This document shows positions 1 through 45,959 of a stretch of DNA of 60,309 bases, in pieces. Location: the IMG/VR virus record IMGVR_UViG_3300048824_000144, positions 1 through 60,309 of that record; one strand, 5' to 3'. Made by a program: the position numbers and the translations under genes. Numbering within the stretch: the stretch's first letter is position 1; each line of letters opens with the position of its first letter. This DNA comes from a virus. The notes under the pieces are model-generated. The model saw only the letters and a list, made by a program, of their open reading frames with translations. It was not told the origin of the DNA and ran no database searches.

Positions 1-127
1 AAGCGGAGGGGCGGCTTTGGGCGCGGACTTGGCGGCTGTGGCCATGGCTGGAATCCTTAATCGATCTTGTACATGTTATATAACATCGCCGGAAGTCCCT
101 TGGACGCAAAGACTTGCAGAGATGCTA
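1..127. repeat. terminal overlap of a circular assembly (copy 1)
   Basis: reads identically to 60183-60309 base by base. Confidence 0.9.
73..86. promoter_or_regulatory. perfect 14-bp palindrome ATGTTATATAACAT, candidate operator/promoter of the leftward operon starting at 60227
   Basis: self-complementary; sits about 28 nt upstream (minus strand) of the ATG at position 45 (=60227), before an AAGGA RBS; contains TATATA/TATAAC. Confidence 0.4.
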
Positions 128-3054: not shown

Positions 3055-5904
3055 TTAGAGCACTCCCAGCGATCCGTATTGCGAATACTCGCCATCGCCT
3101 TCCACCCACGGCGTGCTGGGCGGCTGGTAGAGCGTGGGCGCCGCGAATTCGTAAATCGAGGGATCGGTTTCGCGCAGCACCAGGTCGATGCCGATGCAGG
3201 GCGCGCCGTTCTTCACTTCGATCACCTGCGTGGCCTGGGTCACGAAGAACGTGATGGGCGGAGGCTGCAACAGCGCTGCCCAGCGTGCATGCGTGAAGGT
3301 GATGGTGTCCCCGGCCTGCACTTGAAATGCAGTCAATTTGCAGGCCAAATGCCCGGAGACCTGAAAGCGCAAAAGCATTAGCACGATCTTGGCGAGACGC
3401 TGCGCTTGCCAGATGGAGGTGCAGAAGCCGAAGCGCACTTCCTTCCAAATGATTTGTCCGCCGTCCTCGGTGAGGTAATCGGGATGGCCCTGCAGCCCGT
3501 TGCCCTGATAAGGCGGGAAGTCGGTCCAGCGCCAGGGCGCCGGCTGCGCTTCGGTGGTATTGGTGGGAACGAACGAGGGCATGATGGTGCCCTTCACTCC
3601 GTTGCAGATGTCGCGCCGCGAGATCCTGAAATCGAACTTGATGGAGTCGCGCAGGTCCGCATCAGTCAAGGCCACCACGGGCGGCGAGTAGACCCCGCCA
3701 AACAGGTGCCACAGATCTCCCGGAGGCACGAGCACACCGGCGCAGGAAGCCACCAGCGCCTTGAGCACGTCTCCGCGCGCGGTCCCGTAATCGAATACCC
3801 CATCGCAGTTGTAGCGATTCTCGCTGACAGTGCCCCCGTTCGAGGCGACCGTGACGACGACGGTTTCTTCGCACAGGTTCGCCATCGCGTTGATCGAGTC
3901 CATGTCGATGGTCGAAGGATCGGCTCCCTCTCCATAGTCGGTGTTGGTGAGGTAGTCGTAAATGATCAGCGCCGGATTCGAGGGATTGGTGGCCGCAATG
4001 CCCGCGGTGGGAACTCCCAGGCACAGCCACACTTGCGGATTCTGGCCGCTGCCGCCGCTCACGTCGCCGACGGTGCATTGCAGCGTGGCCGGCGTCCCGC
4101 CCACGATCTGGTTGGGAATCACGATATCGAAGCTGGTTCCGGTGTAGGTGGCGCCGGGGCTGTTGACCACGACGTGATCGATCTGGAAGTTGTAAGGAGC
4201 CGCCACCCCGCCGCCCAAGCGCATATAGGCGGTGGCTGTAGCCGCGTACGCTTGATTGTTCGGTTCGCTCGAATCGTAGACCGGGAACGACAAAGGTTGC
4301 GCGCTAAAGCCGGAGCCTGGAGTGGGGACCGAAATCGCCGTCACGCCCAGCGTCGGACCTTGCTGGCCCAGGTTGATCACGTTCACAGTGGCCAGAATGC
4401 TTGCGCCATTCGGAAAGCCCGTGGGCGGACTGATCTGCGATGCGCCGTTGATCACCTGGAAAGATTGCCCAATGCCGAGATATCCGTAGCCGGGATTCAC
4501 GATGGCGCAGGAGGCAATCCGGCCGCCCGACACCACGACGGAGAGCACTGCGGTGTAACCGCCGGGGTTGCCCGGCTGCAGCACGAAGATGGTGTAGGTT
4601 CCGTCGATGCCTCCGCTGCCGGCGTTCTGTACGCTGGTTGAAACCAGGCCGTTCACAATCGTCATCGTCGAGCCATCCGGCGTGTACTGGCCGGGCTGCG
4701 TGGCCCAGGTCGGCTCGCTCGGCCCCGTATCAAATTCGAGCGGCGATCCGCCGCACGCCGGCTCCATCAGGGTTTGCAGGTTGCCGTTGGGATCGGTAAA
4801 GGTGTAGGGATATAGGATCGTGCGTTCCGGCCCCGGCCACCCACCGGACTGAAGCGGCCCTGCGTCCAGCCATTCCGCCTCATTGTCGGCCGTGGGAAAA
4901 CCCGGCCCCGCGAAGGCTGGCGGATTGGGCCCCGGCCCGCTCTGGAAGCTGCCACCCGGCCCATTGGTTTGCCATTCCACCCGGTTGGCGGCGTCGATGA
5001 TGTAATTCGCAAACGAGTAGAAGCTGTCAGGGTGCCAGGTGGTGGGACTACCGCCGCCGCCCAACATGCGCGTGTCGAGGATCGGCTTGCCCGTGATCGG
5101 GAAGCGGATGGTGGGAACGTAACCATTGACAAAGATCGGCTGGAAAGTTGCGAGATTGTGTCCCGTTCCGATCTGCGAACCATCCGCGAGATAGTCGTAG
5201 CGCAGGGCGACGTGGACCTTGGCGCGTCCCACCTGGCAGCAACTCAGCCCCCAATCCGGACAGGCCCCGCTCAGCATGGGGAAGGGCATGCCCTCGACAA
5301 TTCCGTTCTCGATCAGCACCGAGGCGGGATTGCCCACGTCGAATTCAAAGGCGATGTGGTAGGAGCCGGGGAACTCGTTTTCCTCGCCGTCGTTGGTGTT
5401 GCCGCCCCAGGGATTGAGCGGGTCCGAAGGCACCCAGATGCCATTCCCGATGTTCGTCAACTCGGTGTAAATGTTGTCGATGATGACGCACATGATCCCG
5501 CCGCGCCCGAACGACGTGATCTGATGGCCGGTAAGCGTGAAAACCAGATGCCGCCAGTTGGCCTGCGGGCCCTCATTCTGGTAGAGCTGATCCCCGGCGG
5601 GCGCGCTGTCGTAGGTCTTGACCCCGCCCACTTCCACGTTCCCATAGACCACGCGGCGGTAGGCGGCAGACTCTTGCGCGTTCGACTGGCTCCCCGGAAC
5701 CGAGGTGTCATTGGGATTGAGGATCGACTGCAACAGCCCGAAAGTGCCGGTGAGTCCGGCGCTCAGGCCCACGGCAAACAGCGTGCTCTCGGAGAAAGTC
5801 ATTCCCCAGATGGCAACCGTCGCGCCCGAGGCGGCGCCGTAGGTGGCGACCATCAGGGCCACCCCGACCGCGATCATTCCGATTTCTTCGGCGGTTTTGG
5901 ACAT
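3055..5904 (-). CDS. tail host-specificity protein (lambda gpJ / GTA g15-like)
   Basis: 949 aa; N-terminal hydrophobic segment, YRRVVYGNVEVGG motif typical of gpJ-type proteins, Gly/Thr/Asn-rich beta composition; follows hub-like and NlpC-like genes. Confidence 0.7.
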   Translation of the reverse strand: MSKTAEEIGMIAVGVALMVATYGAASGATVAIWGMTFSESTLFAVGLSAGLTGTFGLLQSILNPNDTSVPGSQSNAQESAAYRRVVYGNVEVGGVKTYDSAPAGDQLYQNEGPQANWRHLVFTLTGHQITSFGRGGIMCVIIDNIYTELTNIGNGIWVPSDPLNPWGGNTNDGEENEFPGSYHIAFEFDVGNPASVLIENGIVEGMPFPMLSGACPDWGLSCCQVGRAKVHVALRYDYLADGSQIGTGHNLATFQPIFVNGYVPTIRFPITGKPILDTRMLGGGGSPTTWHPDSFYSFANYIIDAANRVEWQTNGPGGSFQSGPGPNPPAFAGPGFPTADNEAEWLDAGPLQSGGWPGPERTILYPYTFTDPNGNLQTLMEPACGGSPLEFDTGPSEPTWATQPGQYTPDGSTMTIVNGLVSTSVQNAGSGGIDGTYTIFVLQPGNPGGYTAVLSVVVSGGRIASCAIVNPGYGYLGIGQSFQVINGASQISPPTGFPNGASILATVNVINLGQQGPTLGVTAISVPTPGSGFSAQPLSFPVYDSSEPNNQAYAATATAYMRLGGGVAAPYNFQIDHVVVNSPGATYTGTSFDIVIPNQIVGGTPATLQCTVGDVSGGSGQNPQVWLCLGVPTAGIAATNPSNPALIIYDYLTNTDYGEGADPSTIDMDSINAMANLCEETVVVTVASNGGTVSENRYNCDGVFDYGTARGDVLKALVASCAGVLVPPGDLWHLFGGVYSPPVVALTDADLRDSIKFDFRISRRDICNGVKGTIMPSFVPTNTTEAQPAPWRWTDFPPYQGNGLQGHPDYLTEDGGQIIWKEVRFGFCTSIWQAQRLAKIVLMLLRFQVSGHLACKLTAFQVQAGDTITFTHARWAALLQPPPITFFVTQATQVIEVKNGAPCIGIDLVLRETDPSIYEFAAPTLYQPPSTPWVEGDGEYSQYGSLGVL

Positions 5905-9436: not shown

Positions 9437-9534
9437 GTGCATCGGATTTCGAATCCGATGCTCTAGCCAAACCCACCGCTATTTGATTGAGCGCACAGGC
9501 GGGGAAACCCGCCTCTGGCGGTTCTATGGCTGTT
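9437..9534 (-). repeat. leader repeat A (paralogue of 52488-52585)
   Basis: 98 nt align without gaps to 52488-52585 with 17 mismatches counted by eye, including an exact 24-mer GCCTCTGGCGGTTCTATGGCTGTT (9511-9534); two hairpins; tRNA-like GCGGTGG...TAGAGCA-anticodon-arm segment on the minus strand. Confidence 0.8.
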
Positions 9535-9718
9535 TCGCCCCCGGAATCGTGCCCAGTTCGGAACCCAACCGCTTCGCCGGCGGCGCCGGCGTCGGGAACA
9601 GTCCGTAATCGTTGTAGACCACTAGCGCCAGCATCAGCAGCATTTCACTGGAGAGATCGCTTCCCCCTGGCGTAGCTCTGAGAAACGCGACGTCGACCGC
9701 GGCCATACACCATCCCAT
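9524..9718 (-). CDS. possible small hydrophobic protein
   Basis: internal ATG of the 9524-9793 ORF (MGWCMAAVDVAF...); weak RBS; stop lies inside repeat A. Confidence 0.3.
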   Translation of the reverse strand: MGWCMAAVDVAFLRATPGGSDLSSEMLLMLALVVYNDYGLFPTPAPPAKRLGSELGTIPGAKQP

Positions 9719-9796
9719 GAACGTGCAGCCCGGCGGAGTTCGGAAACGTCCCGCCGGCGGCCCGGAGCTGCTGTTAGCCTTCTTGGGAGACACATC

Positions 9797-10989: not shown

Positions 10990-11061
10990 TCGAGTCAGGC
11001 GGAGTCGAACCGCCTACCTCCTGATTATGAGTCAGGTGCTCTGCCAATGAGCTATGACAGT
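10990..11061 (-). tRNA. tRNA-Met(CAT)-like, defective acceptor stem (possible pseudogene)
   Basis: good D arm GCTC/GAGC, anticodon arm CCTGA-CTCATAA-TCAGG and T arm GGCGG-TTCGACT-CCGCC, but only 4 of 7 acceptor pairs; the 3' strand looks interrupted (TGAC-TCGA-CAG); no CCA. Confidence 0.4.
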
Positions 11062-12950: not shown

Positions 12951-13183
12951 TCGCTCCCCTTGCGTTCGTTTTCGGCCGCGCCCATGACCGGCGCTTGAGC
13001 CGGCTGCTTGCGGTTGCGTCCTTCGCGGAAGAGCTGGCGATTATAGGCCTGCTCCGCCCGGTCGACAAAGCCCACGCCCTGGCTCGGCCACACCGAGGGA
13101 TGGGCCAACGGCTCCGCCTCGCGCATGTAAGGCGGCCGCGCCACTTCCCACTTCGTTACCTCGTCCCCATACCGCGCCATCAC
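12947..13183 (-). CDS. hypothetical protein
   Basis: 78 aa, coupled on both sides. Confidence 0.6.
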   Translation of the reverse strand: MMARYGDEVTKWEVARPPYMREAEPLAHPSVWPSQGVGFVDRAEQAYNRQLFREGRNRKQPAQAPVMGAAENERKGSE

Positions 13184-13545
13184 GCCACCCGGCTTTCTTT
13201 CCTCTCAGCCTGACGTTCCCTGGGGATGATCGAAGTCGCACGATCGCGGTTACGCGATCTCTTGGCGTCCGGCGCCCTGTACTCGAAACTCCTCTGCTGC
13301 GGCAACCGGCGGAGTCCCAATCGAATCTCTTTCGGCAGGCCGGCAATGCCCAGCTCCTCCACCGCGCGGCTCAGGGTGTTGCGGTGCATTCCCAGCGCCT
13401 GCGCCGTGCGGCACATATTGCCGCGGTGTTGCTGCAGCGAGATCTCGATCATTTCCTTTTTGAGTTCTCTGGCGCCCTCGCCCGGAGTCATGCCTGCCAG
13501 CAACATCTGCTGGGCTAGCTGGCCGATCATCAATCTCGATTCCAT
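13180..13545 (-). CDS. Fis-type (HTH_8) DNA-binding protein
   Basis: ISLQQHRGNMCRTAQALGMHRNTLSRAVEELGI matches the Fis/NtrC C-terminal HTH pattern; ATG 13545 with GAGGAG RBS. Confidence 0.7.
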   Translation of the reverse strand: MESRLMIGQLAQQMLLAGMTPGEGARELKKEMIEISLQQHRGNMCRTAQALGMHRNTLSRAVEELGIAGLPKEIRLGLRRLPQQRSFEYRAPDAKRSRNRDRATSIIPRERQAERKESRVA

Positions 13546-17320: not shown

Positions 17321-17345
17321 ATCGTAGCTTATTCGTAGCTTATGT
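17321..17345 (+). repeat. integrase arm-type site candidate (ATCGTAGCTTATTCGTAGCTTATGT), copy 1
   Basis: 25-mer identical to 17586-17610; internally a tandem CGTAGCTTAT repeat. Confidence 0.7.
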
Positions 17346-17445
17346 GATCCAAAAAGACCCTAAATCCACTCACGTTCCGTCTGTCAGGGGGTTTCTAAGT
17401 CGTTGCAAACACAAGAAAACAGGCCATGCCAGCAAGAGGGTACTT

Positions 17446-17486
17446 CCCTTAAAAGGGCATTGCTCTACCAACTGAGCTACGCGCCC
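17446..17486 (-). other. tRNA-Lys(TTT) 5'-half-like segment, candidate attP core
   Basis: GGGCGCG TA GCTC AGTTGGTA GAGC A ATGCC CTTTTAA, then the tRNA fold is lost; 10 nt downstream of the integrase stop; flanked by arm repeats. Confidence 0.55.
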
Positions 17487-17495
17487 ACATTGCCT

Positions 17496-18863
17496 TCATT
17501 TCCCTGCTAACCCCCTGATTTGTTTATGTCTTACAGGAGCCAGCCGGGGCGACATCGCCGTCGCTCGCTGCGGAGTTTTTCGGGGATCGTAGCTTATTCG
17601 TAGCTTATGTTTCCCCGCCAAACCCTGCATCTTCTCCTGTTTTACCACATCCGCGCGTCCCTTGCGTTCCTGCTCCCGGTATTCGCCCAGCTTGTGCATC
17701 TCCCGCTTGAGCCGCTCCGGGTTGCGCAGCGCATAGCGGTTGAACATCGAGTCGGTCTTCCAGCCGCAGATGACCTTGATGTCCTCTCGGGTCATCCCGG
17801 CTTCCAGCATGTTGCGGGTCGCGGTGCGGCGCAGATCGTGCACCAGCAGGCGTTGCGTCATGCCCGCCATCGCCGTCACCAGCCGCCACAATTTATCGAA
17901 GCGCTTCACTTCCCGGTCCGCCTCTTTGCCTCGCGTGAACAGGCGATCCTCCGGACCCTTGCCCCGCACCGCCTCGCGCAGGATCTCGACCAGCCGCGGA
18001 CACCACTTGCTGTGAAAGGGAACGTCGCGGGCTTCGCGGTTCTTGCTCTTGTCCCCCGGCAGCCGGATCAGCCCCTCGTGCGGGCTGATGAAGCGCACCT
18101 GCGAAACCACCAGCTTCACCACTTCGCTGTGACGCCAGCCGTAGGTGTACGCCACTTCAAACACGCCTTCGAGCCAGGCCCCGCCCCGCCGCACCGTGCG
18201 GCAGGCCGCCGCAAACGCATCGTGGAAGCCCGTCTCCATGAAGCCTTCGCGCTTGTTGTCGGCGAAGCTCGGGAAGTAGGGCATGGTGCGAATCAGCGGC
18301 GGGTTGCCCCGCGTGCCCAGCTTGAAGCAGCGCCGCAGGATGTTCAGCTCGCGCCCGATGGTCGCGCCCTCGACGTGTTCCGCCTCGCGCTTGCGCACGT
18401 AGCGCAGCACCATGTCGTTCGACACATCCTGCGCCCGCATGGGACCGAAGAAGGGCGCCAGATTGCGTTCCCAGCGCTGCACTCCGTTTTCGATCGACGC
18501 GCGTCCCATGCGATGCCAGTCCTCTTTCACCAACAGAAACAAATCGTTGATCCGTACCTGCCGCGTCTGGGGCGTTCCCGCCACCCCGCCGCGCACCCGC
18601 GCTTTCAACTCTTCGAGCTTGCCGTACGCTTTGTGCTCATCCGTGGTCTCGCTCGACTCGATGTAGGCGCGCCCTTGATGGACGAACTGCAAAATCCAGA
18701 AGGGCGAGGAAGCCTTGCGGTACACCGAACCCTCGCCTTTACGCCTGCGTTGCTTTTCCTGCTGCTTTTGCACTGGCACGTCTGGCGCTCCTTGCTCTCG
18801 GAATAGGCCCGGAGACAGACGATCCCGCCGAGCCGCGCCCAGTGTAAACGAGATCACCCGCAT
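17496..18863 (-). CDS. int: tyrosine recombinase / phage integrase (Int1)
   Basis: 455 aa; LLVHDLRRTA and GWKTDSMFNRYAL (H-x-x-R ... Y) catalytic motifs; GSVYRK...W N-terminal arm-binding-like region. Confidence 0.9.
   Translation of the reverse strand: MRVISFTLGAARRDRLSPGLFREQGAPDVPVQKQQEKQRRRKGEGSVYRKASSPFWILQFVHQGRAYIESSETTDEHKAYGKLEELKARVRGGVAGTPQTRQVRINDLFLLVKEDWHRMGRASIENGVQRWERNLAPFFGPMRAQDVSNDMVLRYVRKREAEHVEGATIGRELNILRRCFKLGTRGNPPLIRTMPYFPSFADNKREGFMETGFHDAFAAACRTVRRGGAWLEGVFEVAYTYGWRHSEVVKLVVSQVRFISPHEGLIRLPGDKSKNREARDVPFHSKWCPRLVEILREAVRGKGPEDRLFTRGKEADREVKRFDKLWRLVTAMAGMTQRLLVHDLRRTATRNMLEAGMTREDIKVICGWKTDSMFNRYALRNPERLKREMHKLGEYREQERKGRADVVKQEKMQGLAGKHKLRISYDPRKTPQRATAMSPRLAPVRHKQIRGLAGK
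17586..17610 (+). repeat. integrase arm-type site candidate, copy 2 (inside the int 3' end)
   Basis: identical 25-mer to 17321-17345. Confidence 0.7.
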
Positions 18864-19886: not shown

Positions 19887-19968
19887 GCCCTTTTTTCGGA
19901 TTTCGTAACAAGACAATCTGGATGCTGTCGATCTCGCCGCCAGCCCGTCCCTAATCTTTTCAAGGGAA

Positions 19969-20106
19969 TTATATAGATGACTCGCTCCTTCGACGCTTTG
20001 CATACTGATCTCTCCGCTTCCGGCGCTTGGCCGCTTTGGTCTTGGGTTTCGGACGATACGAGAGAACTTTGTCCGCGATTCGATCTAGCTCTGGGGGAGT
20101 TTTCAT
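19969..20106 (-). CDS. small basic protein inside the IS (conserved in both IS copies)
   Basis: 45 aa MKTPPELDRIADKVLSYRPKPK...; ATGA overlap with the transposase stop; homologue at 43429-43551. Confidence 0.4.
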   Translation of the reverse strand: MKTPPELDRIADKVLSYRPKPKTKAAKRRKRRDQYAKRRRSESSI

Positions 20107-21029
20107 GCTGTCAGTTCCTTGTAGGTGAGATGCTTTCCGACTACCGCGACTACGAACGAATCCAGCCGCTCCAGAGTGTGACGGCTCACATTGCCGACGT
20201 TCAGGCGGAACGTAAACTCATCCACGTAGCGGTGCAGATGCTTCTTGGAAACCTGATGGTAAACGCCATACACTCCGCGCTTGAGTACGGCCCAAACGGA
20301 TTCAATGCTGTTCGTGCTAACGCCGTTCTCGGAGTAGATTCCAGCCGTGTGATTGATCGCTTCGTGCCGAAAGAACAGACCGTCAAGGCCGACGTATCCG
20401 GTCGCTTCGTCCGTAAAGATCGTGGAACCTACTTCGACGTTGGCATGGACAGCCGATTGCAGCGCGGCCATGTCGGTAGCCTCAATCGGCATCGCTACGG
20501 TGCGTCCGCCGCGCTCCCTGAGTCCTACGACAGCCGTCTTCCCGACGCTTCCACGTCCGGCCTTGAGTTTTTTGTGTTCGTGCTTGTTGCGCTCTTTTCC
20601 ACCGATGAAGCATTCGTCTACTTCGACGATGCCGCGCAACTTGTCAAGGTCATCGCCAGAGCCGCACGCCTCGCGGAGACGTTGGAGCATGAACCATGCC
20701 GACTTCTGGGTAACACCGATCTCTTTCCCCAATTGCAAGCTGGAGATGCCCTTGCGTGCGGTTACGAGCAGGTACATGGCATAGAGCCATTTGTGCAACG
20801 GAATATGGCTGCGCTCGAAGATCGTCCCTGTACGGATCGTGAAATCGAGAGAACAGGCATTGCAGCGATAGAAGCCAACCTTGGGTTGCTTGCCGATGCG
20901 CTCACGGTTCTTACATTCAGGGCAGAACGGACCATCGGGCCAAATCCGCGATTCGAGATAGAGCCGTGCCGACTCAGGGGTCGGGAACATCTCGAAAAGT
21001 TGAAAGGTGCTGATTGTAGATTTGCTCAT
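20103..21029 (-). CDS. IS1595-family (ISXO2-like) DDE transposase
   Basis: 308 aa; N-terminal zinc ribbon CPECK...CNAC, then HKWLYAMYLLVTARKGISSLQL and DECFIGG...TDE..GY typical of ISXO2-like transposases. Confidence 0.9.
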   Translation of the reverse strand: MSKSTISTFQLFEMFPTPESARLYLESRIWPDGPFCPECKNRERIGKQPKVGFYRCNACSLDFTIRTGTIFERSHIPLHKWLYAMYLLVTARKGISSLQLGKEIGVTQKSAWFMLQRLREACGSGDDLDKLRGIVEVDECFIGGKERNKHEHKKLKAGRGSVGKTAVVGLRERGGRTVAMPIEATDMAALQSAVHANVEVGSTIFTDEATGYVGLDGLFFRHEAINHTAGIYSENGVSTNSIESVWAVLKRGVYGVYHQVSKKHLHRYVDEFTFRLNVGNVSRHTLERLDSFVVAVVGKHLTYKELTA

Positions 21030-21494: not shown

Positions 21495-21746
21495 TTCGTT
21501 CTCCTCAACTTCCTATATAGTAGATAACTCGCTGCATTTTGTCAAGAACTTTAGTCGTTTTGTTCTGAAAGGGTTAGCGACTCATGTATATAATTCCCCT
21601 TTTCAAGGAGTTCCCTTCTCGCCAAAGTGCCGATTCGTCGGCACCGTGCCGAAATCTCGGCAGAGGACGAGACGTGCCCGCCGCGCCTTTCCGGAAAATG
21701 GAACGTAAAATAACAAGCCTCCGGCTGGCTTCTAGGATCACCGAAT

Positions 21747-38997: not shown

Positions 38998-39073
38998 TGG
39001 TAGGCCCAGAAGGATTCGAACCCTCAAAAGCTGCTCCTAAGGCAGCCGTGTTTGCCGATTACACCATGGGCCC
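38998..39073 (-). tRNA. tRNA-Leu(TAG) with only a 4-nt variable region (atypical)
   Basis: acceptor GGGCCCA/TGGGCCT, A73, CCA; anticodon arm GCTGC-CTTAGGA-GCAGC; T loop TTCGAAT; same acceptor as tRNA-Leu(CAA) at 39379. Confidence 0.65.
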
Positions 39074-39075
39074 AC

Positions 39076-39166
39076 TGGTGCACAGAGAAGGATTTGAACC
39101 TCCGCGTCCCACTCGGGGAAACCGGGTTACAGCCGGTCCGTTTCAGCCGGGCTCACGCATCTGTGC
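39076..39166 (-). tRNA. tRNA-Tyr(GTA)
   Basis: acceptor GCACAGA/TCTGTGC; ACCGG-CTGTAAC-CCGGT; long variable arm; GGAGG-TTCAAAT-CCTTC; CCA. Confidence 0.8.
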
Positions 39167-39170
39167 AAAA

Positions 39171-39260
39171 TGGCGGAGAAGGTGAGATTTGAACTCACGA
39201 CACCCGCAGGTGTGGCAGTTTTCGGGACTGCTGGCATAAGCCGGACTCGCCCACTTCTCC
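39171..39260 (-). tRNA. tRNA-Ser(CGA)
   Basis: GGAGAAG/CTTCTCC; GCAGT-CCCGAAA-ACTGC; long variable arm; T loop TTCAAAT; GCCA end. Confidence 0.75.
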
Positions 39261-39261
39261 G

Positions 39262-39349
39262 TGGCGGAGAGTGCGAGATTCGAACTCGCGGCGCCCTTGG
39301 GCGCTCGATCTTAGCAGGATCGCGGCATAAGCCACTCGCCCAACTCTCC
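39262..39349 (-). tRNA. tRNA-Ser(GCT)
   Basis: GGAGAGT/ACTCTCC; CGATC-CTGCTAA-GATCG; long variable arm; GCGAG-TTCGAAT-CTCGC; CCA. Confidence 0.8.
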
Positions 39350-39378
39350 GTTTGAATTGTCAAAGATCAAAGAAACTT

Positions 39379-39462
39379 TGGTAGGCCCAGAGAGATTTGA
39401 ACTCTCATGCCCGAAGGCGACCGCTCTTGAGGCGGCTGCGTCTGCCGTTCCGCCATGGGCCT
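39379..39462 (-). tRNA. tRNA-Leu(CAA)
   Basis: AGGCCCA/TGGGCCT; GCCGC-CTCAAGA-GCGGT; 13-nt variable arm; GAGAG-TTCAAAT-CTCTC; ACCA. Confidence 0.8.
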
Positions 39463-39545
39463 GAATTGTGTGGGGACTAATAACCCAGCAGGATGCTGAG
39501 TCGTAACGACAATCGGGATGAGTGTAGAGCGAACATCGAAGTTTT

Positions 39546-39622
39546 TGGTTGCGCGGGGTGGATTTGCACGCACCGTCTGGAGGTTATGAGCCTCCCGTAT
39601 TGTCCTACGCTACTACCGCGCC
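39546..39622 (-). tRNA. tRNA-Met(CAT), initiator-like 3' end, irregular D and T arms
   Basis: GGAGG-CTCATAA-CCTCC; ends ...CCGCGCAACCA as bacterial initiators do; the T stem pairs only as GGTG/CACC. Confidence 0.55.
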
Positions 39623-39627
39623 TCTCA

Positions 39628-39656
39628 AACCTAGCGGAAGCGCCCCGCGGTGTCAA
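39628..39656 (-). promoter_or_regulatory. candidate internal promoter TTGACA-N17-TAGGTT
   Basis: -35 at 39651-39656, -10 at 39628-39633; the predicted start coincides with the 5' end of tRNA-Met at 39622. Confidence 0.4.
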
Positions 39657-39741
39657 TCGCAAAAGCGGTCACGGGAGTGCGTGGCCCGAAGATCGCTCAT
39701 TTTCCGGTCAATCCGCAGGCGATTAGCGCATCGTCAAAAAA

Positions 39742-39824
39742 TGGTCGGGGTGAGAGGACTCGAACCTCTGGTGTTTGTGTACCTGCTCCCAAGGCAGGTG
39801 GCCTCGCCGCTAGCCGACACCCCG
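39742..39824 (-). tRNA. tRNA-Pro(TGG) with 12-nt variable region
   Basis: CGGGGTG/CACCCCG; CCTGC-CTTGGGA-GCAGG; AGAGG-TTCGAGT-CCTCT; ACCA. Confidence 0.65.
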
Positions 39825-39825
39825 A

Positions 39826-39901
39826 TGGTGAGAAGCCTCCGAGTCGAACGGAATCCTCTGGCTTTTCAGGCCAGCGCGCGCACCGGCTACGCCAGCTTCC
39901 C
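39826..39901 (-). tRNA. tRNA-Phe(GAA)
   Basis: GGGAAGC/GCTTCTC (one G-U); CTGGC-CTGAAAA-GCCAG; T loop TTCGACT; ACCA. Confidence 0.8.
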
Positions 39902-39968
39902 ACATTTTGGAGCCGGGTTACATCACGCGCGTTTCCCGGCAAGCTAGCGCGATAGCCCTTGCAAGATC

Positions 39969-40043
39969 TGGTGGACAAGGCGGCACTCGAAGCCGCGCCT
40001 GACGGGTGCAAACCGTCTATGCTCCCACTTACACCACTCGCCC
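39969..40043 (-). tRNA. tRNA-Ala(TGC)
   Basis: GGGCGAG/CTTGTCC with G3:U70; GACGG-TTTGCAC-CCGTC; GCGGC-TTCGAGT-GCCGC; ACCA. Confidence 0.8.
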
Positions 40044-40046
40044 ACT

Positions 40047-40121
40047 TGGGGTGACCCGAGGGAGTCGAACCCTCTAAAACGTGTTCCACAGACACGCCCC
40101 GCACCGTTTGGGTTGGGCCAC
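40047..40121 (-). tRNA. tRNA-His(GTG)
   Basis: GTGGCCC/GGGTCAC; CGTGT-CTGTGGA-ACACG; discriminator C; CCA; the base at -1 is A, not G. Confidence 0.7.
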
Positions 40122-40135
40122 TCAAAAACTAAACT

Positions 40136-40211
40136 TGGAGCCGGCGGCGTGGAGTTGAACCCGCAACCTGTCGAGTACAGATCGACCGCTCTGCCTTTGA
40201 GCTACACCGGC
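40136..40211 (-). tRNA. tRNA-Thr(TGT)
   Basis: GCCGGTG/CGCCGGC; GTCGA-TCTGTAC-TCGAC; T stem with a bulged A; TCCA end. Confidence 0.7.
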
Positions 40212-40224
40212 ACTTCTAAAAAAC

Positions 40225-40300
40225 TGGAGCCAGCGATCAGATTCGAACTGACTGCCTCTCCCTTACCAAGGGAGCGCACATCCTCATGTGCTTCACCGGC
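40225..40300 (-). tRNA. tRNA-Thr(GGT)
   Basis: GCCGGTG/CGCTGGC (two G-U); CTCCC-TTGGTAA-GGGAG; GTCAG-TTCGAAT-CTGAT. Confidence 0.8.
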
Positions 40301-40305
40301 AAACA

Positions 40306-40380
40306 TGGAGCCAGCGCGACGGATCGAACGCCGATCACCAGGGTACGAATCTGGCGCTCTGCCTGTTGAGCTACGCTGGC
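40306..40380 (-). tRNA. tRNA-Thr(CGT)
   Basis: GCCAGCG/CGCTGGC; CCAGA-TTCGTAC-CCTGG (one mismatch); CGGCG-TTCGATC-CGTCG. Confidence 0.7.
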
Positions 40381-40381
40381 C

Positions 40382-40455
40382 TGGAGGTCGGTGAGGGAGT
40401 TGAACCCCCGTCAGATGCTTTGCAGGCATCTACCTGGCCGCTCGGACAACCGACC
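40382..40455 (-). tRNA. tRNA-Cys(GCA)
   Basis: GGTCGGT/ACCGACC; GATGC-CTGCAAA-GCATC; GGGGG-TTCAACT-CCCTC. Confidence 0.8.
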
Positions 40456-40461
40456 GAAACC

Positions 40462-40536
40462 TGGTGCGGGGAACGGGACTCGAACCCGTGTCATCGCGTT
40501 GGCAACGCAATATCCTGGCCGCTAGACGATCCCAGC
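40462..40536 (-). tRNA. tRNA-Gly(GCC)
   Basis: GCTGGGA/TCCCCGC (one mismatch); TTGCG-TTGCCAA-CGCGA; ACGGG-TTCGAGT-CCCGT. Confidence 0.75.
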
Positions 40537-40544
40537 ACAAAATT

Positions 40545-40619
40545 TGGAGCGGACGGCGAGAGTTGAACTCGCGTCATTGGGTTGGAGGCCCAAGGCACCA
40601 GCCGCTATACCACGCCCGC
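40545..40619 (-). tRNA. tRNA-Gly(TCC)
   Basis: GCGGGCG/CGTCCGC; TTGGG-CCTCCAA-CCCAA; GCGAG-TTCAACT-CTCGC. Confidence 0.75.
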
Positions 40620-40734
40620 TCGCGCGCTCGCTTTGTAGGCGTCCTCGACGCCTCGTTCCCCGTCGCAGATCGGGAGACTGCTTTCCTGCTCCGGGCTTTC
40701 CCCGGTCGGCCCTGCGACTCCAGCGAACGCAAAA

Positions 40735-40811
40735 TGGCAGGCCGCGTGAGATTCGAACTCACTAGAACTAGTTTTGGAGACTAGCGCCCTTCCAGTCGGG
40801 TCATGCGGCCT
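40735..40811 (-). tRNA. tRNA-Trp(CCA)
   Basis: AGGCCGC/GCGGCCT; CTAGT-CTCCAAA-ACTAG; GTGAG-TTCGAAT-CTCAC; GCCA. Confidence 0.85.
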
Positions 40812-40812
40812 A

Positions 40813-40890
40813 TGGCGGGAATGACGAGACTCGAACTCGCTTTACTCCTCAGTGACAGTGAGGCGGCTCGGCCACTTTGCCCTCATCCCC
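40813..40890 (-). tRNA. tRNA-Asp(GTC)
   Basis: GGGGATG/CATTCCC; CCTCA-CTGTCAC-TGAGG; GCGAG-TTCGAGT-CTCGT; GCCA. Confidence 0.8.
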
Positions 40891-40911
40891 GTAAATCAAT
40901 TGTCAAAGAAC

Positions 40912-40986
40912 TGGCAACGGCTCAGAGATTCGAACTCTGCTCTCGGCGTCCAGAGCGCCGGGTCTTTCCCACTAAACGAAGCCGCA
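40912..40986 (-). tRNA. tRNA-Gln(CTG)
   Basis: TGCGGCT/AGCCGTT with unpaired 1:72; CGGCG-CTCTGGA-CGCCG; CAGAG-TTCGAAT-CTCTG; GCCA. Confidence 0.75.
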
Positions 40987-40993
40987 ACAAAAT

Positions 40994-41068
40994 TGGCAGC
41001 CGGTGAGAGAATTGAACTCCCGTAGCTGGATCCAAAGGCCAGCGCCTAAGCCACTCGGCCAACCGGCC
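40994..41068 (-). tRNA. tRNA-Gln(TTG)
   Basis: GGCCGGT/ACCGGCT; CTGGC-CTTTGGA-TCCAG (one mismatch); GGGAG-TTCAATT-CTCTC; GCCA. Confidence 0.7.
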
Positions 41069-41248
41069 TCAAATTTTCAAACTCACCGCCTTCACGCAGC
41101 GGCCGCACAGCACGAACTTGTCATCCGGCAGCATGCCGCGGGTCAGGTAATCGACCCTCGCATCCGAGATCAGCTTGCGATGATCCCCGCCACGCTCGCA
41201 TTCGAGAGCGTCGGTCAGCTTCACGGTTTCCCCGAATGCCTGCAACAT
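41069..41248 (-). CDS. possible 59-aa protein embedded in the tRNA array
   Basis: MLQAFGETVKLTDALECERGGDHRKLISDARVDYLTRGMLPDDKFVLCGRCVKAVSLKI; AGAGAGG upstream; its stop abuts the tRNA-Gln 5' end. Confidence 0.4.
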   Translation of the reverse strand: MLQAFGETVKLTDALECERGGDHRKLISDARVDYLTRGMLPDDKFVLCGRCVKAVSLKI

Positions 41249-41261
41249 CTCCGACCTCTCT

Positions 41262-41335
41262 TGGTAGGGCCACGGAGAATCGAACTCCGGTTCTCTGATC
41301 GAAAGTCAGTTTTCCTGCCACTAGAAGATGACCCC
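41262..41335 (-). tRNA. tRNA-Glu(TTC)
   Basis: GGGGTCA/TGGCCCT (G-U pairs); ACTGA-CTTTCGA-TCAGA; CGGAG-TTCGATT-CTCCG; ACCA. Confidence 0.75.
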
Positions 41336-41341
41336 ACAAAC

Positions 41342-41415
41342 TGGTAGCGCATCCGAGAATCGAACTCGGGTTCCCTGTTAGAGAGACAGGCTGCCTGCCA
41401 CTAGCAGAATGCGCC
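41342..41415 (-). tRNA. tRNA-Glu(CTC)
   Basis: GGCGCAT/ATGCGCT; CCTGT-CTCTCTA-ACAGG; CCGAG-TTCGATT-CTCGG; ACCA. Confidence 0.75.
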
Positions 41416-41417
41416 GC

Positions 41418-41448
41418 AAAAAACTTAAGCCCCTCGTTGGAGGGGCTT
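41418..41448 (-). terminator. rho-independent terminator
   Basis: the minus strand reads AAGCCCCTC-CAAC-GAGGGGCTT followed by AAGTTTTTT. Confidence 0.65.
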
Positions 41449-41566
41449 CGATGGCGTTGGTGCTCTCGAAATCCCCTCACATAAACGTGCCTTCCCCCTG
41501 CCACGCGGCTGGCGTAGTGGGTGTCGGCTGGTGGCCGAAGCAATCGCTATGTTGGAAGAGATTCAC
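41418..41566 (-). ncRNA. candidate ~150-nt small RNA inside the tRNA array
   Basis: bounded by promoter TTGACG-N17-TACTCT (41573-41601) and the terminator at 41418-41448; no plausible ORF. Confidence 0.35.
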
Positions 41567-41572
41567 AGATCG

Positions 41573-41601
41573 AGAGTACCGTCCCGCAGGCAGCGCGTCA
41601 A
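41573..41601 (-). promoter_or_regulatory. candidate sigma-70-type promoter TTGACG-N17-TACTCT
   Basis: -35 at 41596-41601, -10 at 41573-41578, spacing counted as 17. Confidence 0.45.
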
Positions 41602-41741
41602 GAACGAAAGGCCATGATCGAAAAGCAACATGTAAACATGTAAACATGCTCACACGGTTGCGAATGATCCTTCGCCAAAGAACGGCTCAGGATTTCGCGT
41701 CCGGGCTCCCGCTTCGCTCACGCCCGGAGAACCGCTCAAAA

Positions 41742-41817
41742 TGGCAGGCAGCCAGAGAATCGAACTCTGATCCCGGCTTTCGGAAAACCGTGTGCTCATC
41801 CGTTGCACCAGCCGCCC
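41742..41817 (-). tRNA. tRNA-Arg(CCG)
   Basis: GGGCGGC/GCTGCCT (G-U pairs); CGGTT-TTCCGAA-AGCCG; CAGAG-TTCGATT-CTCTG; GCCA. Confidence 0.8.
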
Positions 41818-41820
41818 GCA

Positions 41821-41896
41821 TGGTGCCCGCGCTGAGATTCGAACTCAGGTCTGTCGCTTAGGAGGCGACCGCTCTCTCCAGTTGAACTACGCGGGC
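41821..41896 (-). tRNA. tRNA-Arg(CCT)
   Basis: GCCCGCG/CGCGGGC; GTCGC-CTCCTAA-GCGAC; CTGAG-TTCGAAT-CTCAG; ACCA. Confidence 0.85.
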
Positions 41897-41909
41897 TGCA
41901 AACAAAAAA

Positions 41910-41985
41910 TGGCAGGAGCGGCAGGAATCGAACCCGCATTCCACGGTCCGTAGCCGTGTGCCCTGATCCGTTGGACGACGCTCCC
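41910..41985 (-). tRNA. tRNA-Arg(ACG)
   Basis: GGGAGCG/CGCTCCT; CACGG-CTACGGA-CCGTG; GCGGG-TTCGATT-CCTGC; GCCA. Confidence 0.8.
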
Positions 41986-41989
41986 ACTT

Positions 41990-42064
41990 TGGTAGAGCCT
42001 GGATGACTCGAACACCCATTTCAGGCTTAGAAGGCCTGATCCTATCCCGTTGAATGAAGGCTCC
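41990..42064 (-). tRNA. tRNA-Arg(TCT)
   Basis: GGAGCCT/AGGCTCT; CAGGC-CTTCTAA-GCCTG; GGGTG-TTCGAGT-CATCC; ACCA. Confidence 0.8.
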
Positions 42065-42069
42065 CAACC

Positions 42070-42135
42070 TGGTGCGGGTGACAGGAATCGAACCTGCTGC
42101 CACTCGATTAAAAGTCGAGTGCTCTAATCCACCGC
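42070..42135 (-). tRNA. tRNA-Lys(TTT)-like, 5' D-arm region deleted (probable pseudogene)
   Basis: GCGGTGG-ATTAGAGC-ACTCGA-CTTTTAA-TCGAGT-GGCA-GCAGG-TTCGATT-CCTGT-CACCCGC-ACCA, 66 nt; restoring about 12 nt would give a canonical GCGGGTG/CACCCGC tRNA. Confidence 0.45.
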
Positions 42136-42286
42136 TGCTTCCGCGCCCTCACCGTGTCCGCCGATTCGCGTCCGCCCATCAGAAGAACGCTTCCTTCGAT
42201 TGATCGAAAACCGCAGACTCGACGGCCAGGTGCTTCATTCGAGAGAGCAGTGGCGGCAAGTTCGGATGCAACATCGCGTTTTCTCC

Positions 42287-43020: not shown

Positions 43021-43076
43021 GTTCGCCACCCCAAAATGATGGGACTTATATACTTAACTCCCTAAACACAATGAAA

Positions 43077-43645: not shown

Positions 43646-44563
43646 TCATGCGGTCAACCCTTCATAGGTCAGCCGCTTGCCGACTACGGCCAGAACAAAG
43701 CTATCCAGCCGCTCAAGAGTGTGGTACTTCACGTTGCCGACGTTCAGCCGGAAGGTGAACTCGTCAACGTACTTGGCAAGATGCTTCTTGCTTATTTGGT
43801 GATAGACGCCGTACACGCCGCGTTTCAGGACTGCCCAAACGCTCTCGATTCCGTTCGTGCTCGCCTGACCCAGCCGGTACTCGCCCGCCATGTGATTGAC
43901 GCTCTGGTGACGGAAGAAAAGACCATCAAGGCCGATGTATCCGGGTGCCTCATCCGTGAAGATCGTAGAGCCGACTTCCACATTGGCGTGGATGGCGGAT
44001 TGCAAACTGACTTGGTCGGTAGCTTCCAGCGGCATTGCAATAGTGCGTCCGCCGCGCTCCCTGAGTCCTACAACGGCAGTCTTGCCCACGGAGCCACGCC
44101 CAGCCTTGAGCTTTTTGTGCTCGTGCTTGTTGCGCTCTTTCCCGCCGATAAAACATTCGTCAATTTCGACCATGCCGCGAAGTTTGTCCAGCTTCCCGCC
44201 GCACGCCTCCCGAAGCCGATGCAGAACGAACCACGCCGACTTCTGCGTAATGCCGATTTCCTTGGCAAGCTGCATCGAACTGATGCCTTTTCGCGCTGTG
44301 ACGAGCAGGTACATGGCATAGAGCCACTTGTGCAGAGGAATGTGGCTGCGCTCGAAGATCGTGCCTGTACGGATGGTGAAATCCAATTGGCAGGCATTGC
44401 AGCGATAGAAGCCGCCCTTGCGAGTTGTGATGCGTTCAGTGGCTTTGCAGGTCGGGCAAGTGACGCCGTTTTCCCAGAGACGGGATTCCAGATAGAGCCG
44501 TGCGGACTCCGCGTCGGGAAACATCTCGAAAAGCTGGAATGTGCTGATCGTGCTCTTACTCAT
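43646..44563 (-). CDS. IS1595-family (ISXO2-like) DDE transposase
   Basis: 305 aa from ATG 44563 (MSKSTISTFQLFEMFP...), collinear and highly similar to 20103-21029. Confidence 0.9.
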   Translation of the reverse strand: MSKSTISTFQLFEMFPDAESARLYLESRLWENGVTCPTCKATERITTRKGGFYRCNACQLDFTIRTGTIFERSHIPLHKWLYAMYLLVTARKGISSMQLAKEIGITQKSAWFVLHRLREACGGKLDKLRGMVEIDECFIGGKERNKHEHKKLKAGRGSVGKTAVVGLRERGGRTIAMPLEATDQVSLQSAIHANVEVGSTIFTDEAPGYIGLDGLFFRHQSVNHMAGEYRLGQASTNGIESVWAVLKRGVYGVYHQISKKHLAKYVDEFTFRLNVGNVKYHTLERLDSFVLAVVGKRLTYEGLTA

Positions 44564-44567
44564 TGCG

Positions 44568-44738
44568 TTACCCCTCGCATCCCATCTGGTAATAGCCGCC
44601 ACAGTCCTGGGAGCAGAAATCTATCGTTTGCGTGCGAACCTCTTGCTTTTGGCGAGCGGGATTCCATGCTCGGTCGATTATCTTTCGCGGTACAGGTGTC
44701 TCGATTGGCTTCCCGCAGTAAGGGCATTTGGCTGTCAT
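44568..44738 (-). CDS. zinc-ribbon cargo protein
   Basis: 56 aa MTAKCPYCGKPIETP...CSQDCGGYYQMGCEG; stop 5 nt before the transposase ATG. Confidence 0.45.
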   Translation of the reverse strand: MTAKCPYCGKPIETPVPRKIIDRAWNPARQKQEVRTQTIDFCSQDCGGYYQMGCEG

Positions 44739-45202: not shown

Positions 45203-45221
45203 TTGTAAGGGAACTATATAC

Positions 45222-45933
45222 TTAACTCCCTAACTGCCGAGTTTCAACATTGCACACAGCTTCCGCATAATCGACAATACAGCTCGCCAGCTCAGGAGGA
45301 ATGGTTGCCGCTACGCCACTACAGTTAGCGCGACCGCCGGCCAATCTCTCGCTCTCTTGCTGCCACCGATTACGCCAGTCCTGCACACTGATGTCCTGCG
45401 GACGCTTCTCCATCCATGCGCCAGGAGCTCCACGAAAGCCCTTGCCTTTAATAATCCCTTGCGGCATGAGCGGCGGTACTCCGCTGCCCCACAGGTAGAA
45501 CGGGCCGCAATGATGGACTGCATTGCCCACAAACTGCTGCGCCGCTCTGACGTTCTCCATGACGAAGGGAATGCCGGATGCCATGCACAATTCACGGGTG
45601 TGATTGAAGAGCCTAATACCTTGCGTTGGGTAAGGGGGGCTTGGGTGAAAGCACTTCATGCCGTGTACAGAAAACTCTTCACAGGGAGAGGAGGCACAGA
45701 TGAAATCGAACTGTTCCGACCAGTGGCAAGCAAACCGATCTTGGAGCATTACATAACCGTTTCCCGATGCTGCAAAATTAAGCACGTCCTCTTTCAGGAA
45801 GTACAATCCCTGCGGAACCTCTGGGGGGTTCAACTAAGTCAACCGCAACGACATTCCAGCCTCGCGACAAAAATGGTTTCGACCATCCGAGTCGCCCGCA
45901 AAAGAGATCAAGCATCCGTTTCATGTTTGGCAT
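45222..45933 (-). pseudogene. C5 cytosine DNA methyltransferase split by a frameshift at a C6 run
   Basis: motif I DLFCGRLGWS in frame A (45933-45778); motif IV SSPCEEFS and motif VI FVMENV in frame B (45833-45222); frames meet at GGGGGG 45823-45828. Confidence 0.7.
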
Positions 45934-45959
45934 CCTAGCACCCCAGAAAAGGGAGTTAA

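Follow-up and report, generated by a model that had tools for sequence, protein, structure and literature searches.

A duplicated 98-nt element in a 60-kb phage-like circle: a conserved tandem repeat and palindrome, and a candidate recombinase-type DNA site

A 98-nt sequence occurs twice in the window, the whole 60,309-nt stretch of viral DNA that was analysed. This repeat is genuine and under strong selection, and what has been selected is a tandem 11-bp repeat and a palindrome, with DNA of fixed length but freely varying sequence between them. Judged from its sequence, the 98-bp unit may be a binding site of the recombinase type on double-stranded DNA, composed of arm repeats and a core inverted repeat. 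Its likeliest partner would then be the tyrosine integrase Int2. This is the reading preferred here, although it is held tentatively and at somewhat less than even confidence.

Structure and conservation of the element

The window was assembled as a circle of 60,182 bp, with a terminal overlap of 127 nt and a G+C content of 62%. In two tracts, 21.5-0.4 kb and 60.2-33.9 kb, nearly all genes are carried by the minus strand, and both copies of the element, A and B, are co-oriented with every gene that flanks them. The sequence-only reading of this DNA had described two 98-nt copies that align without gaps, with 17 mismatches and a shared 24-mer, and re-alignment reproduced this description exactly. 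The copies are identical at 81 of 98 positions (self-BLAST E = 5e-24), and the exact 24-mer GCCTCTGGCGGTTCTATGGCTGTT is found at 9511-9534 and 52562-52585. A core 18-mer matches twice in the window, compared with 0.03 matches expected. No third or diverged copy was found in the window by BLAST, by pattern searches allowing mismatches or with a covariance model. The parts of the element, with element positions counted along the gene-sense minus strand, are as follows.

Element positions 1-24, minus strand: block 1, AACAGCCATAG AACCGCCAGAG GC, tandem 11-nt repeats identical at 9 of 11 positions; 0 of 24 columns variable
Element positions 25-36, minus strand: spacer of constant length; 11 of 12 columns variable
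Element positions 37-73, minus strand: block 2, CTGTG..TCAATCA..TA..GGTGG.TTT.GC; 15 of 37 columns variable
Element positions 74-96, no strand assigned: palindrome of 23 nt; 1 of 20 arm columns and 3 of 3 centre columns variable
9437-9534, minus strand: copy A, complete unit, 81/98 identical to copy B without gaps; in the same place in L003 and L005-L017
9511-9534, minus strand: block 1 of copy A, AACAGCCATAG at 9534-9524, AACCGCCAGAG at 9523-9513, then GC; the TAG stop codon of ORF89 lies inside, at 9526-9524
9499-9510, minus strand: hypervariable 12-nt spacer of copy A, equal to the inner part of the first hairpin proposed earlier
9462-9498, minus strand: block 2 of copy A, semi-conserved, with 15 of 37 columns varying among six types
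9439-9461, no strand assigned: palindrome of copy A, GCATCGGATT-TCG-AATCCGATGC, perfect over 10+10
52488-52585, minus strand: copy B, complete unit; in the same place, directly behind int2, in L019-L026 and L044-L051
52562-52585, minus strand: block 1 of copy B, both 11-nt repeats identical to those of copy A
52490-52512, no strand assigned: palindrome of copy B, GCATCGGATT-CTC-AATCAGATGC, with one arm mismatch; perfect in types B' and B2
The element as a gapped pattern: AACMGCCAKAGAACMGCCAKAG, a gap of 49 or 50 nt, GCATCNGATT
The B-type core: GCATCGGATTGAGAATCCGATGC

A scan with a core 20-mer led to one metagenome contig (L003) and one MAG match (L004), and about 45 further loci were reached through the proteins flanking the element. 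More than 30 contigs from about 15 samples bear the element, and six sequence types, which differ pairwise at 6 to 26 positions, were compiled from the related metagenome contigs.

Type A: the window, L005, L008-L012 and L014
Type A': L003/L017, L006, L007, L013 and L016
Type A2: L015
Type B: the window, L020-L023, L025, L026, L045-L047 and L049-L051
Type B': L019/L048 and L024
Type B2: L044

The MAG match, from Oceanipulchritudo, was rejected both as a homologue and as a host attB. It consists of a 21-mer inside a lipoate-ligase-like ORF, and about one chance match is expected in 596 Gb. In IMG/VR, no matches to the 24-mer or to the palindrome pattern and no relatives of int2 were found, and a 17-mer gave six matches, none with extended similarity. 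Nothing similar was found among the GenBank phages.

The variability among the six types is unevenly distributed. There are 30 variable columns in total and none in block 1 (P = 3e-5), and block 1 and the palindrome arms jointly contain at most one (P = 5e-9). The tandem repeat has the consensus AACMGCCAKAG, and 20 of the window's 60,288 positions have tandem 11-mers like those of block 1. The arms of the palindrome are invariant in five of the six types. Its centre separates the two groups, since on the minus strand every A type has CGA and every B type has GAG. The constraint on block 1 does not come from coding, since ORF89, which stops within it in the A types, and int2 of L019, whose frame crosses it and stops in the spacer, read it in different frames, and no ORF covers block 1 of copy B in the window. 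Coding on the plus strand (...LWRFYGC...) was also rejected, as the frame is open in copy A and has a stop in copy B.

The palindrome is readable as a core-type inverted repeat with 8-bp arms around the 7 bp TTTCGAA; the 8+7+8 arrangement fits, and the cleavage positions are putative. The tandem repeats lie 61-84 bp from the palindrome centre, on one side only. Block 2 is possibly a DNA-bending region or one of the IHF/HU type. The IHF consensus includes an ATCAA core and a TTR part; as read here, block 2 contains the former and lacks the latter.

Where near-identical genomes differ, all the differences fall in the variable parts of the element, and they end at the palindrome. The window and L006 differ at 6 positions within 9464-9509 and at none over the next 700 nt, and the window and L019 differ at 14 positions within 52507-52559 and at none over the next 1,000 nt. 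In the comparison with L019, the sequence upstream is 84% identical or unrelated. This pattern is equally compatible with a crossover at the palindrome and with homologous recombination seeded by identical stretches. Recombination products were not observed, and across the 51 loci (469 kb) no copy is broken or has altered flanks. Neither attL or attR, a solo half-palindrome, an A/B hybrid site nor a host attB was found in the 51 loci or in the 20-mer genome scan.

Such junctions could also be left by functionless remnants kept alike by gene conversion, whose short identical stretches would act as mosaic linkers for related genomes in the manner proposed for the PeSLs of T4 (PMC2839356). In favour of this, mosaic junctions fall at both edges of the element and at the palindrome, copy A is present in some genomes only, as an insertion of about 130 nt, and at two variable positions both copies of a genome share a state that differs between genomes (column 63, G or T; column 70, C). 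However, 44 positions are essentially unchanged while the intervening 12-nt spacer is almost saturated with changes, and conversion would have to skip both the spacer and the palindrome centre every time. Moreover, L015 has the same block 1 and palindrome as the window despite flanks that are only 83-87% identical. An origin as remnants is for these reasons regarded as improbable. The PeSLs of T4-type phages resemble the element in being short conserved intergenic cassettes, repeated within a genome at the junctions of shuffled modules, but they combine a strong sigma-70-like promoter with a terminator stem-loop and occur in many copies (PMC2839356, PMC4122927). In contrast, the element has two copies only, with neither a promoter match nor a U-tract after the palindrome.

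Several other origins were rejected. Derivation of the palindrome from a tRNA or tRNA-like structure is contradicted by a B-type loop without the C56 of a T-loop and by negative ARAGORN and Rfam results. The repeats of a diversity-generating retroelement were excluded because the mismatches between the copies show no adenine specificity and a reverse transcriptase is absent. A cos or pac site was dismissed as well, as the differing centres mean that the ends would not be cohesive and the window has no terminase gene.

Genomic context of the two copies

The genes and sites that surround the two copies, together with those of the first integrase, are listed below.

9524-9793, minus strand: ORF89, upstream neighbour of copy A, with a GC3 signal and an in-frame indel relative to L003
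9070-9411, minus strand: ORF113, downstream neighbour of copy A, with homologues 1-3 genes before terminase genes
53210-54589, minus strand: int2, tyrosine integrase and proposed partner of the element (Pfam Phage_integrase, E = 9e-20)
52617-53198, minus strand: ORF193, EndoVII/HNH-like, inserted between int2 and copy B (phrog_1035, E = 9e-14)
52287-52306, minus strand: intrinsic terminator between copy B and ORF68, an 8-bp stem with 7 G-C pairs, then CTTTTTT
52056-52262, minus strand: ORF68, first gene past copy B and the terminator
17496-18863: int1, the first integrase
17321-17610, minus strand: attP of int1, including the 5' part of tRNA-Lys, with the crossover near 17488-17448; repeat family D13
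17610-17586 and 17345-17321, minus strand: arms of the int1 attP, ATAAGCTACGA twice, tandem 11-nt repeats

The spacings given in the earlier description were exact, with copy A 25 nt before the ATG at 9411 of a 113-codon ORF and copy B 225 nt before the ATG at 52262 of a 68-codon ORF. The further statement that each copy heads an operon describes geometry only, and in relatives the two genes flanking copy A are adjacent or 6 nt apart. Copy A always lies between ORF89 and ORF113. Where the element is absent, these genes are spaced by 6 nt in L028 and L029, whose ORF113 is 79% identical, and by 3 nt in L032 and L033, and unrelated intergenic sequence occupies the junction in L018 and L030. These comparisons show copy A to be a dispensable insertion, about 130 nt long, at a gene junction older than itself. 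Because copy A is such an insertion and ORF89 and ORF113 are adjacent in relatives, the two copies are not the two ends of an element integrated in the phage. Their interpretation as attL and attR was likewise rejected, given that the same arm, and not the core alone, is common to both and that the junctions of L028/L029, L032/L033, L018 and L030 exist without the element.

The position of copy A corresponds to the boundary between early and late genes, since distant homologues of ORF113 are found one to three genes before the genes for the small and large terminase subunits, portal and capsid. Copy A has no neighbouring integrase, yet it is constrained like copy B. Candidate roles for it are a partner site for exchange with related genomes and a regulatory binding site.

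The second of these roles is part of a broader alternative in which the element is a regulatory DNA cassette for transcription, without recombination. A phage regulator bound to the tandem repeats, the palindrome or both would switch on or roadblock the tail/lysis and RtcB/tRNA operons. Candidates for this regulator are a Fis/NtrC-type HTH_8 protein encoded at 13180-13545, the products of ORF243 or ORF89, and an excisionase-like factor, and small DNA-binding proteins are indeed encoded nearby. Precedents for such a cassette are P2 Cox and 186 Apl, each of which recognises direct repeats in helical phase both in attP and in a promoter. The stoperators described in mycobacteriophages are another (PMC9283540). 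The location of copy A at the boundary before the terminase, portal and capsid genes in ORF113 homologues would suit this function, as would the presence in L018, at the equivalent place, of an unrelated palindrome, TGATCAA-AC-TTGATCA, just before the ribosome-binding site. However, relatives have an ORF89/ORF113 junction without any element, copy B goes with int2 and not with ORF68, and a search of 600 nt around either copy on both strands gave no sigma-70-type promoter match and no TAnnnT hexamer at conserved positions. A purely regulatory cassette is accordingly thought unlikely. The same promoter search bears on two alternatives that had been put forward from the sequence alone. Paired late promoters found no sigma-70-type match in either region or on either strand, whereas recombination sites are favoured by anatomy and context.

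A promoter of a different kind has also been weighed. The sigma-54 consensus is TGGCAC-N5-TTGCW, with GG and GC 10 bp apart, and block 1 contains TGGCGG-N5-TGGCT on the plus strand, where it could form a promoter antisense to ORF89 and int2 with the palindrome about 90 bp upstream as an enhancer. The GG-N10-GC spacing is right and the palindrome centre would fall at about -91. Nonetheless, a relaxed form of this pattern is at chance frequency, with 10 occurrences in the window where 6.4 are expected, a result that 12 of 100 shuffles equal. In addition, a G replaces the conserved consensus T at -14, an AAA+ activator gene was not found, and transcription would oppose every gene. This possibility is therefore given hardly any credence.

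Copy B follows int2 directly in each of the three B types and in every contig that contains B. The stop codon of int2 is inside the element in L019 and L024 and 34 nt before it in L044, while in the window the two are separated by ORF193, which is absent from L019, L024 and L044. The ORF68 homologue of L040-L043, the closest without int2 upstream, has no element, spacer or terminator in this place. Copy B thus travels with int2 and not with the operon that it was said to head.

The first integrase provides a comparison. Int2 and the int1 product are paralogues that share 32% identity over about 400 residues, including the N-terminal region, and the N-terminus of Int2 gave no match to a Pfam arm-binding family. 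Searches of PDB, Pfam and NCBIfam were uninformative for ORF243, ORF113 and the Int2 N-terminus. The attP of int1 could be mapped from a host junction in tRNA-Lys, as the homology between L008 and the window ends at 17488, beyond which host DNA follows, and the shared sequence is the 5' part of tRNA-Lys(UUU) as far as the anticodon loop. For int1, the contigs sampled include the integrated as well as the unintegrated state. This junction also excludes the 98-nt element as the attP of int1. Within the int1 attP, one pair of repeats is inside the 3' end of int1 and the other pair is beyond the core, and a terminator-type hairpin precedes the next gene. The same layout is common to int1 and int2 and consists of the integrase gene, the site, about 190 nt, a terminator-type hairpin and the next gene. 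Block 1 has the same design as the demonstrated arm site of the paralogue int1, and by this analogy its function as an arm for Int2 is putative.

Viewed as an attachment site, the element has arm-type direct repeats in the form of two invariant tandem 11-nt repeats, and a position beside an integrase gene is found for copy B and not for copy A. The nearest lambda-type attP for comparison is that of int1. The element resembles this class in that copy B adjoins the 3' end of the integrase gene, in that its helically phased tandem repeats correspond to arm sites and its inverted repeat with a short centre to a core, and in the possible bending region between them and the terminator-type hairpin before the next gene. 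It differs in its one-sided repeats, in the lack of a tRNA-like target, in the fact that attL and attR were never seen and in the second copy far from the integrase. Beyond the palindrome, no match to the arm repeats at 8 or more of 11 positions was found in any B type except for a single 8/11 match in L044, where chance would give 2.4 per 475 nt.

In the one-sidedness of its repeats, the element is nearer to the IRS of Tn4430 than to a two-armed attP. The IRS, the site of the recombinase TnpI, is 116 bp long, and all four of its motifs share one 9-bp recombinase-binding sequence (PMC2847244). Both the IRS and the 98-bp element are sites of about 100 bp with an inverted-repeat core and two tandem accessory repeats on one side, and the IRS is used by a tyrosine recombinase on directly repeated copies. 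In contrast, the repeat AACMGCCAKAG of the element reads unlike its palindrome arm GCATCGGATT, the context is not that of a Tn3-family transposon, and the two copies differ in the centre of the core.

RNA structure and transcriptional read-through

The element could also act in cis after transcription, as a sense-strand RNA comparable to put, EAR or canT, and modify RNA polymerase so that it passes 52287-52306 and the later terminators of the tail/lysis operon. The sequence-only reading had proposed an antitermination RNA like put or nut on the basis of the terminator geometry and of two hairpins thought to be kept in both copies. The geometry has been upheld, and the intrinsic terminator claimed between copy B and ORF68 is present at 52306-52287 on the minus strand; a conserved structure, covariation and an Rfam match did not emerge. 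Since the gap between the terminator stem and the ATG of ORF68 is 24 nt, with no room for a promoter of its own, expression of ORF68 needs read-through of a strong terminator. L044 also has this terminator, in a form whose inner stem and loop are different (CCTCCCG-ACAAC-CGGGAGG, then CATTTTT). The need for read-through and the conservation of this terminator with a changed stem, beside the canT/T1 precedent, are the main support for an RNA function, and the common orientation of both copies and all flanking genes is in agreement with it.

Of the two hairpins, the one formed by the palindrome has held up, being perfect in A and containing one mismatch in B (AATCAGATGC). The first hairpin, made up of the hypervariable spacer and its edges, is not conserved. 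It forms a clean 6-bp stem in type A only; the stem of A' is interrupted by a C-C mismatch and that of B by two mismatches, and it cannot form in B' or B2. Compensatory changes had been claimed for its inner stem, but 69% of cells are paired, a single cell is compensatory and four of the seven pairs depart by unpaired cells only. When RNAalifold was applied to the six types, it returned a long-range helix between block 1 and block 2 and the palindrome hairpin, with an unfavourable covariation term of +1.6. Shuffles matched or beat the alignment in covariation score in 388 of 500 cases and in percent paired in 344 of 500. Both helices are drawable in all types, with 95.8% of cells paired in the 12-bp long-range helix and 98.3% in the 10-bp hairpin. 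Of the four variable positions within them, one is a G-U to G-C change in L015, which works on the sense strand only and so favours an RNA, but the other three break the pair. Copy A folds better than its shuffled sequence (z = -2.5), while copy B folds no better (z = +0.24). A search with the covariance models of Rfam 15 yielded nothing at the gathering score and only chance-level matches at E up to 10, the best of them a tRNA model with 16 bits on the palindrome. The earlier proposal had turned on structure-preserving substitutions in homologues, and among the six types none was seen beyond those of shuffles. The apparent compensation between two paralogous copies thus vanishes after four more sequence types are included, and the features that are conserved are the tandem 11-nt repeat and the palindrome.

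Comparison with known antitermination systems gives a mixed picture. The put RNAs of HK022 (putL and putR) are about 70 nt long, lie a short way downstream of early promoters and have two conserved stem-loops next to each other (PMC9378689). The element is similar in having two like copies, each before a long operon, with drawable stem-loops and a terminator past one copy, but one of its hairpins is unconserved and it shows no detectable promoter and no covariation. In Tn916, canT spans about 340-450 nt ahead of xis/int and has been shown to act in cis, and T1 is an insulator terminator (PMC11658703). There, too, the integrase end of a mobile element has, on the other side of the attachment site, a terminator guarding the next operon, whose expression needs read-through. 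Compared with canT, however, the element is only 98 nt long and is known from sequence alone. The arrangement might also resemble Tn916 in that only the circular form would join the antiterminator to a terminator-guarded operon. The nut site of lambda consists of boxA, which resembles CGCTCTTTA, and then a short boxB hairpin. In contrast, the CGCTC of copy A is replaced by GCATTC, GGGTTC or GCTTGC in the other types, and the element has no conserved boxB-like 5-bp stem with a purine-rich loop.

Further points against an RNA are that the tandem 11-nt repeats and the free spacer of fixed length are features of a DNA site, that the element is absent from close relatives in which the same genes are simply adjacent, and that no terminator was found between copy A and ORF113. 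Overall, an RNA function is considered rather doubtful. It is weakened and not abolished, because the terminator behind copy B is real and is kept with a changed inner stem in L044, and because only six types were compared.

Proposed mechanism and implications

If the element is a recombinase-type site, block 1 would be bound by the N-terminal domain of Int2, with its two tandem 11-bp repeats serving as arm-type or accessory sites on the same face of the helix. The two arms of the palindrome would be occupied by the core-binding and catalytic domains, with cleavage flanking the central 7 bp. Block 2 would be bent, perhaps by a protein of the HU/IHF family, a gene for which is present in the int2 module, and the 12-bp variable stretch would be a mere spacer of fixed length. 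Copy B would represent the site that moves with int2, and copy A a second complete copy inserted between ORF89 and ORF113. Given the differing centres, exchange between A and B would not be productive, which would allow two direct copies to coexist in a 60-kb circle. The binding protein, the place of cleavage and this centre-based block on A x B exchange are what we infer from the arrangement as a whole.

The evidence for this mechanism comprises the invariance of block 1, the parallel with the int1 attP, the linkage to int2, the common layout at the two integrase genes, the free variation of the spacer, the negative RNA tests and the junctions at the palindrome. Against it stand the one-sided arms, the copy A without an integrase, the unmatched N-terminus of Int2 and the fact that no product has been seen, and homologous recombination would suffice to explain the junctions. 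On balance, recognition of the element by a recombinase, probably Int2 if any, is a plausible but tentative conclusion.

An extension of this mechanism treats A and B as heterospecific sites, with the same arms and different centres, comparable to loxP and lox2272. By two exchanges, Int2 would swap arcs between co-resident related genomes. The two copies split the circle into a 17-kb arc that contains ORF113, the tail fibre, the endolysin and int2, and a 43-kb arc that contains RtcB, the tRNA array, the replication genes and int1, so that natural cassette exchange of this kind would shuffle host-range and tRNA modules. Both palindromes are exactly where near-identical sequence turns diverged, which is compatible with such exchange, but homologous recombination explains the same observation. 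The proposal of heterospecific sites, and the module shuffling that would follow from it, is distinctly speculative and quite improbable on present evidence.

Each of these readings would have different consequences. If the RNA reading were true, the element would represent a new class of processive antiterminator outside the enteric phages. If, instead, Int2 binds the cassette, this phage-like element would possess a second, separate system of site-specific recombination, and one of its sites would have been duplicated where the late region starts. It would then offer a concrete case of a recombinase site that doubles as a module boundary in a mosaic phage-like element.

Covariation of the element copies and the int2 neighbourhood

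The A and B copies of the 98-nt non-coding element co-vary between genomes at two variable positions of its minus-strand alignment, columns 63 and 70, when A'/B' and A2/B2 are treated as one-genome pairs solely on the basis of their same-sample origin. At column 63 (9472/52523), both copies in the window have G, and both have T in A'/B' and A2/B2. At column 70 (9465/52516), the window has T in A and G in B, and A'/B' and A2/B2 all have C. This pattern hints at gene conversion between the copies or at co-evolution with a shared binding factor.

The tyrosine integrase gene int2, which precedes copy B, has an EndoVII/HNH-like gene on either side, with a third HNH gene 2 kb further along:

54586-55311, EndoVII/HNH-like gene
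52617-53198, EndoVII/HNH-like gene (ORF193, between int2 and copy B)
56629-57135, HNH gene

In a related locus (L020), the gene upstream of int2 shares 4 nt with the beginning of the int2 reading frame. The presence or absence of ORF193 differs among genomes that are otherwise near-identical, as would be expected for a mobile endonuclease gene. Two small DNA-architectural proteins are also encoded, one upstream of each of copy A and int2:

13180-13545, minus strand, Fis/NtrC-type HTH_8 protein of 121 residues, encoded in the module preceding copy A
3154-3447 of related locus L019, HU/IHF-family protein, encoded in the module preceding int2

The int1 attachment site, transposases and tRNA-like sequences

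The attP of int1, the paralogous integrase gene, was mapped via a host junction at 17488, found in a related locus (L008 1860-2040):

17321-17610, int1 attP region
17496-18863, minus strand, int1 gene

A 5' fragment of a tRNA-Lys(UUU) gene, reaching as far as the anticodon loop, is present in the phage at this site. Each side of the core has a pair of tandem 11-nt arm repeats (ATAAGCTACGA, twice), and one of these pairs falls within the int1 coding region.

Two transposase genes of the IS1595 family (Pfam DDE_Tnp_IS1595, E 1e-42), sharing ~78% identity, are located in islands of low G+C content (53-54% vs 62%). Short inverted repeats of the form GGGA.TTATATA...TCCC lie nearby and are probably IS ends:

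20103-21029, minus strand, transposase gene
43646-44602, minus strand, transposase gene
19964-19988, inverted repeat
21576-21598, inverted repeat
43041-43065, inverted repeat
45209-45233, inverted repeat
45951-45975, inverted repeat

Two Rfam tRNA matches were not called by ARAGORN:

10994-11058, minus strand, tRNA match (53.7 bits, model positions 4-67)
42073-42144, minus strand, tRNA match

The first is tRNA-like with incomplete acceptor ends. It is isolated, with DUF7873 on one side and a small ORF on the other, distant from the array of 24 tRNA genes at 38998-42064.

Circularity and head genes

The window has a terminal overlap of 127 nt (1-127 = 60183-60309). A contig of 117,946 nt from another sample, Ga0495392_000098 (loci L005 and L046), carries B and A at the same spacing as in the window, 43.05 kb. 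From the locus offsets, and with sequence from the second pass only, it appears to re-enter the window (8762->7815) after a 60,183-nt turn, and then runs into unrelated DNA with DUF932, Ku, DnaJ and methyltransferase genes. Possible readings of this contig are an assembly that wraps around or is chimeric, and a tandem or composite element.

The window as a whole yielded no terminase, portal or capsid gene, although genes for a tail fibre, another tail protein and an endolysin are present. In relatives, terminase, portal and capsid genes directly follow the homologue of ORF113, the gene downstream of copy A (L018 11472-19078, L030 2428-10122, L032 12531-18601). In relatives without the element, this homologue is preceded by conserved intergenic sequence of their own (L018 9950-9990, L030 1100-1300), which in L018 includes a palindrome, TGATCAA-AC-TTGATCA, unrelated to that of the element and just 5' of the ribosome-binding site. 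The 60-kb circle could represent a derivative without a head or a satellite-like element.
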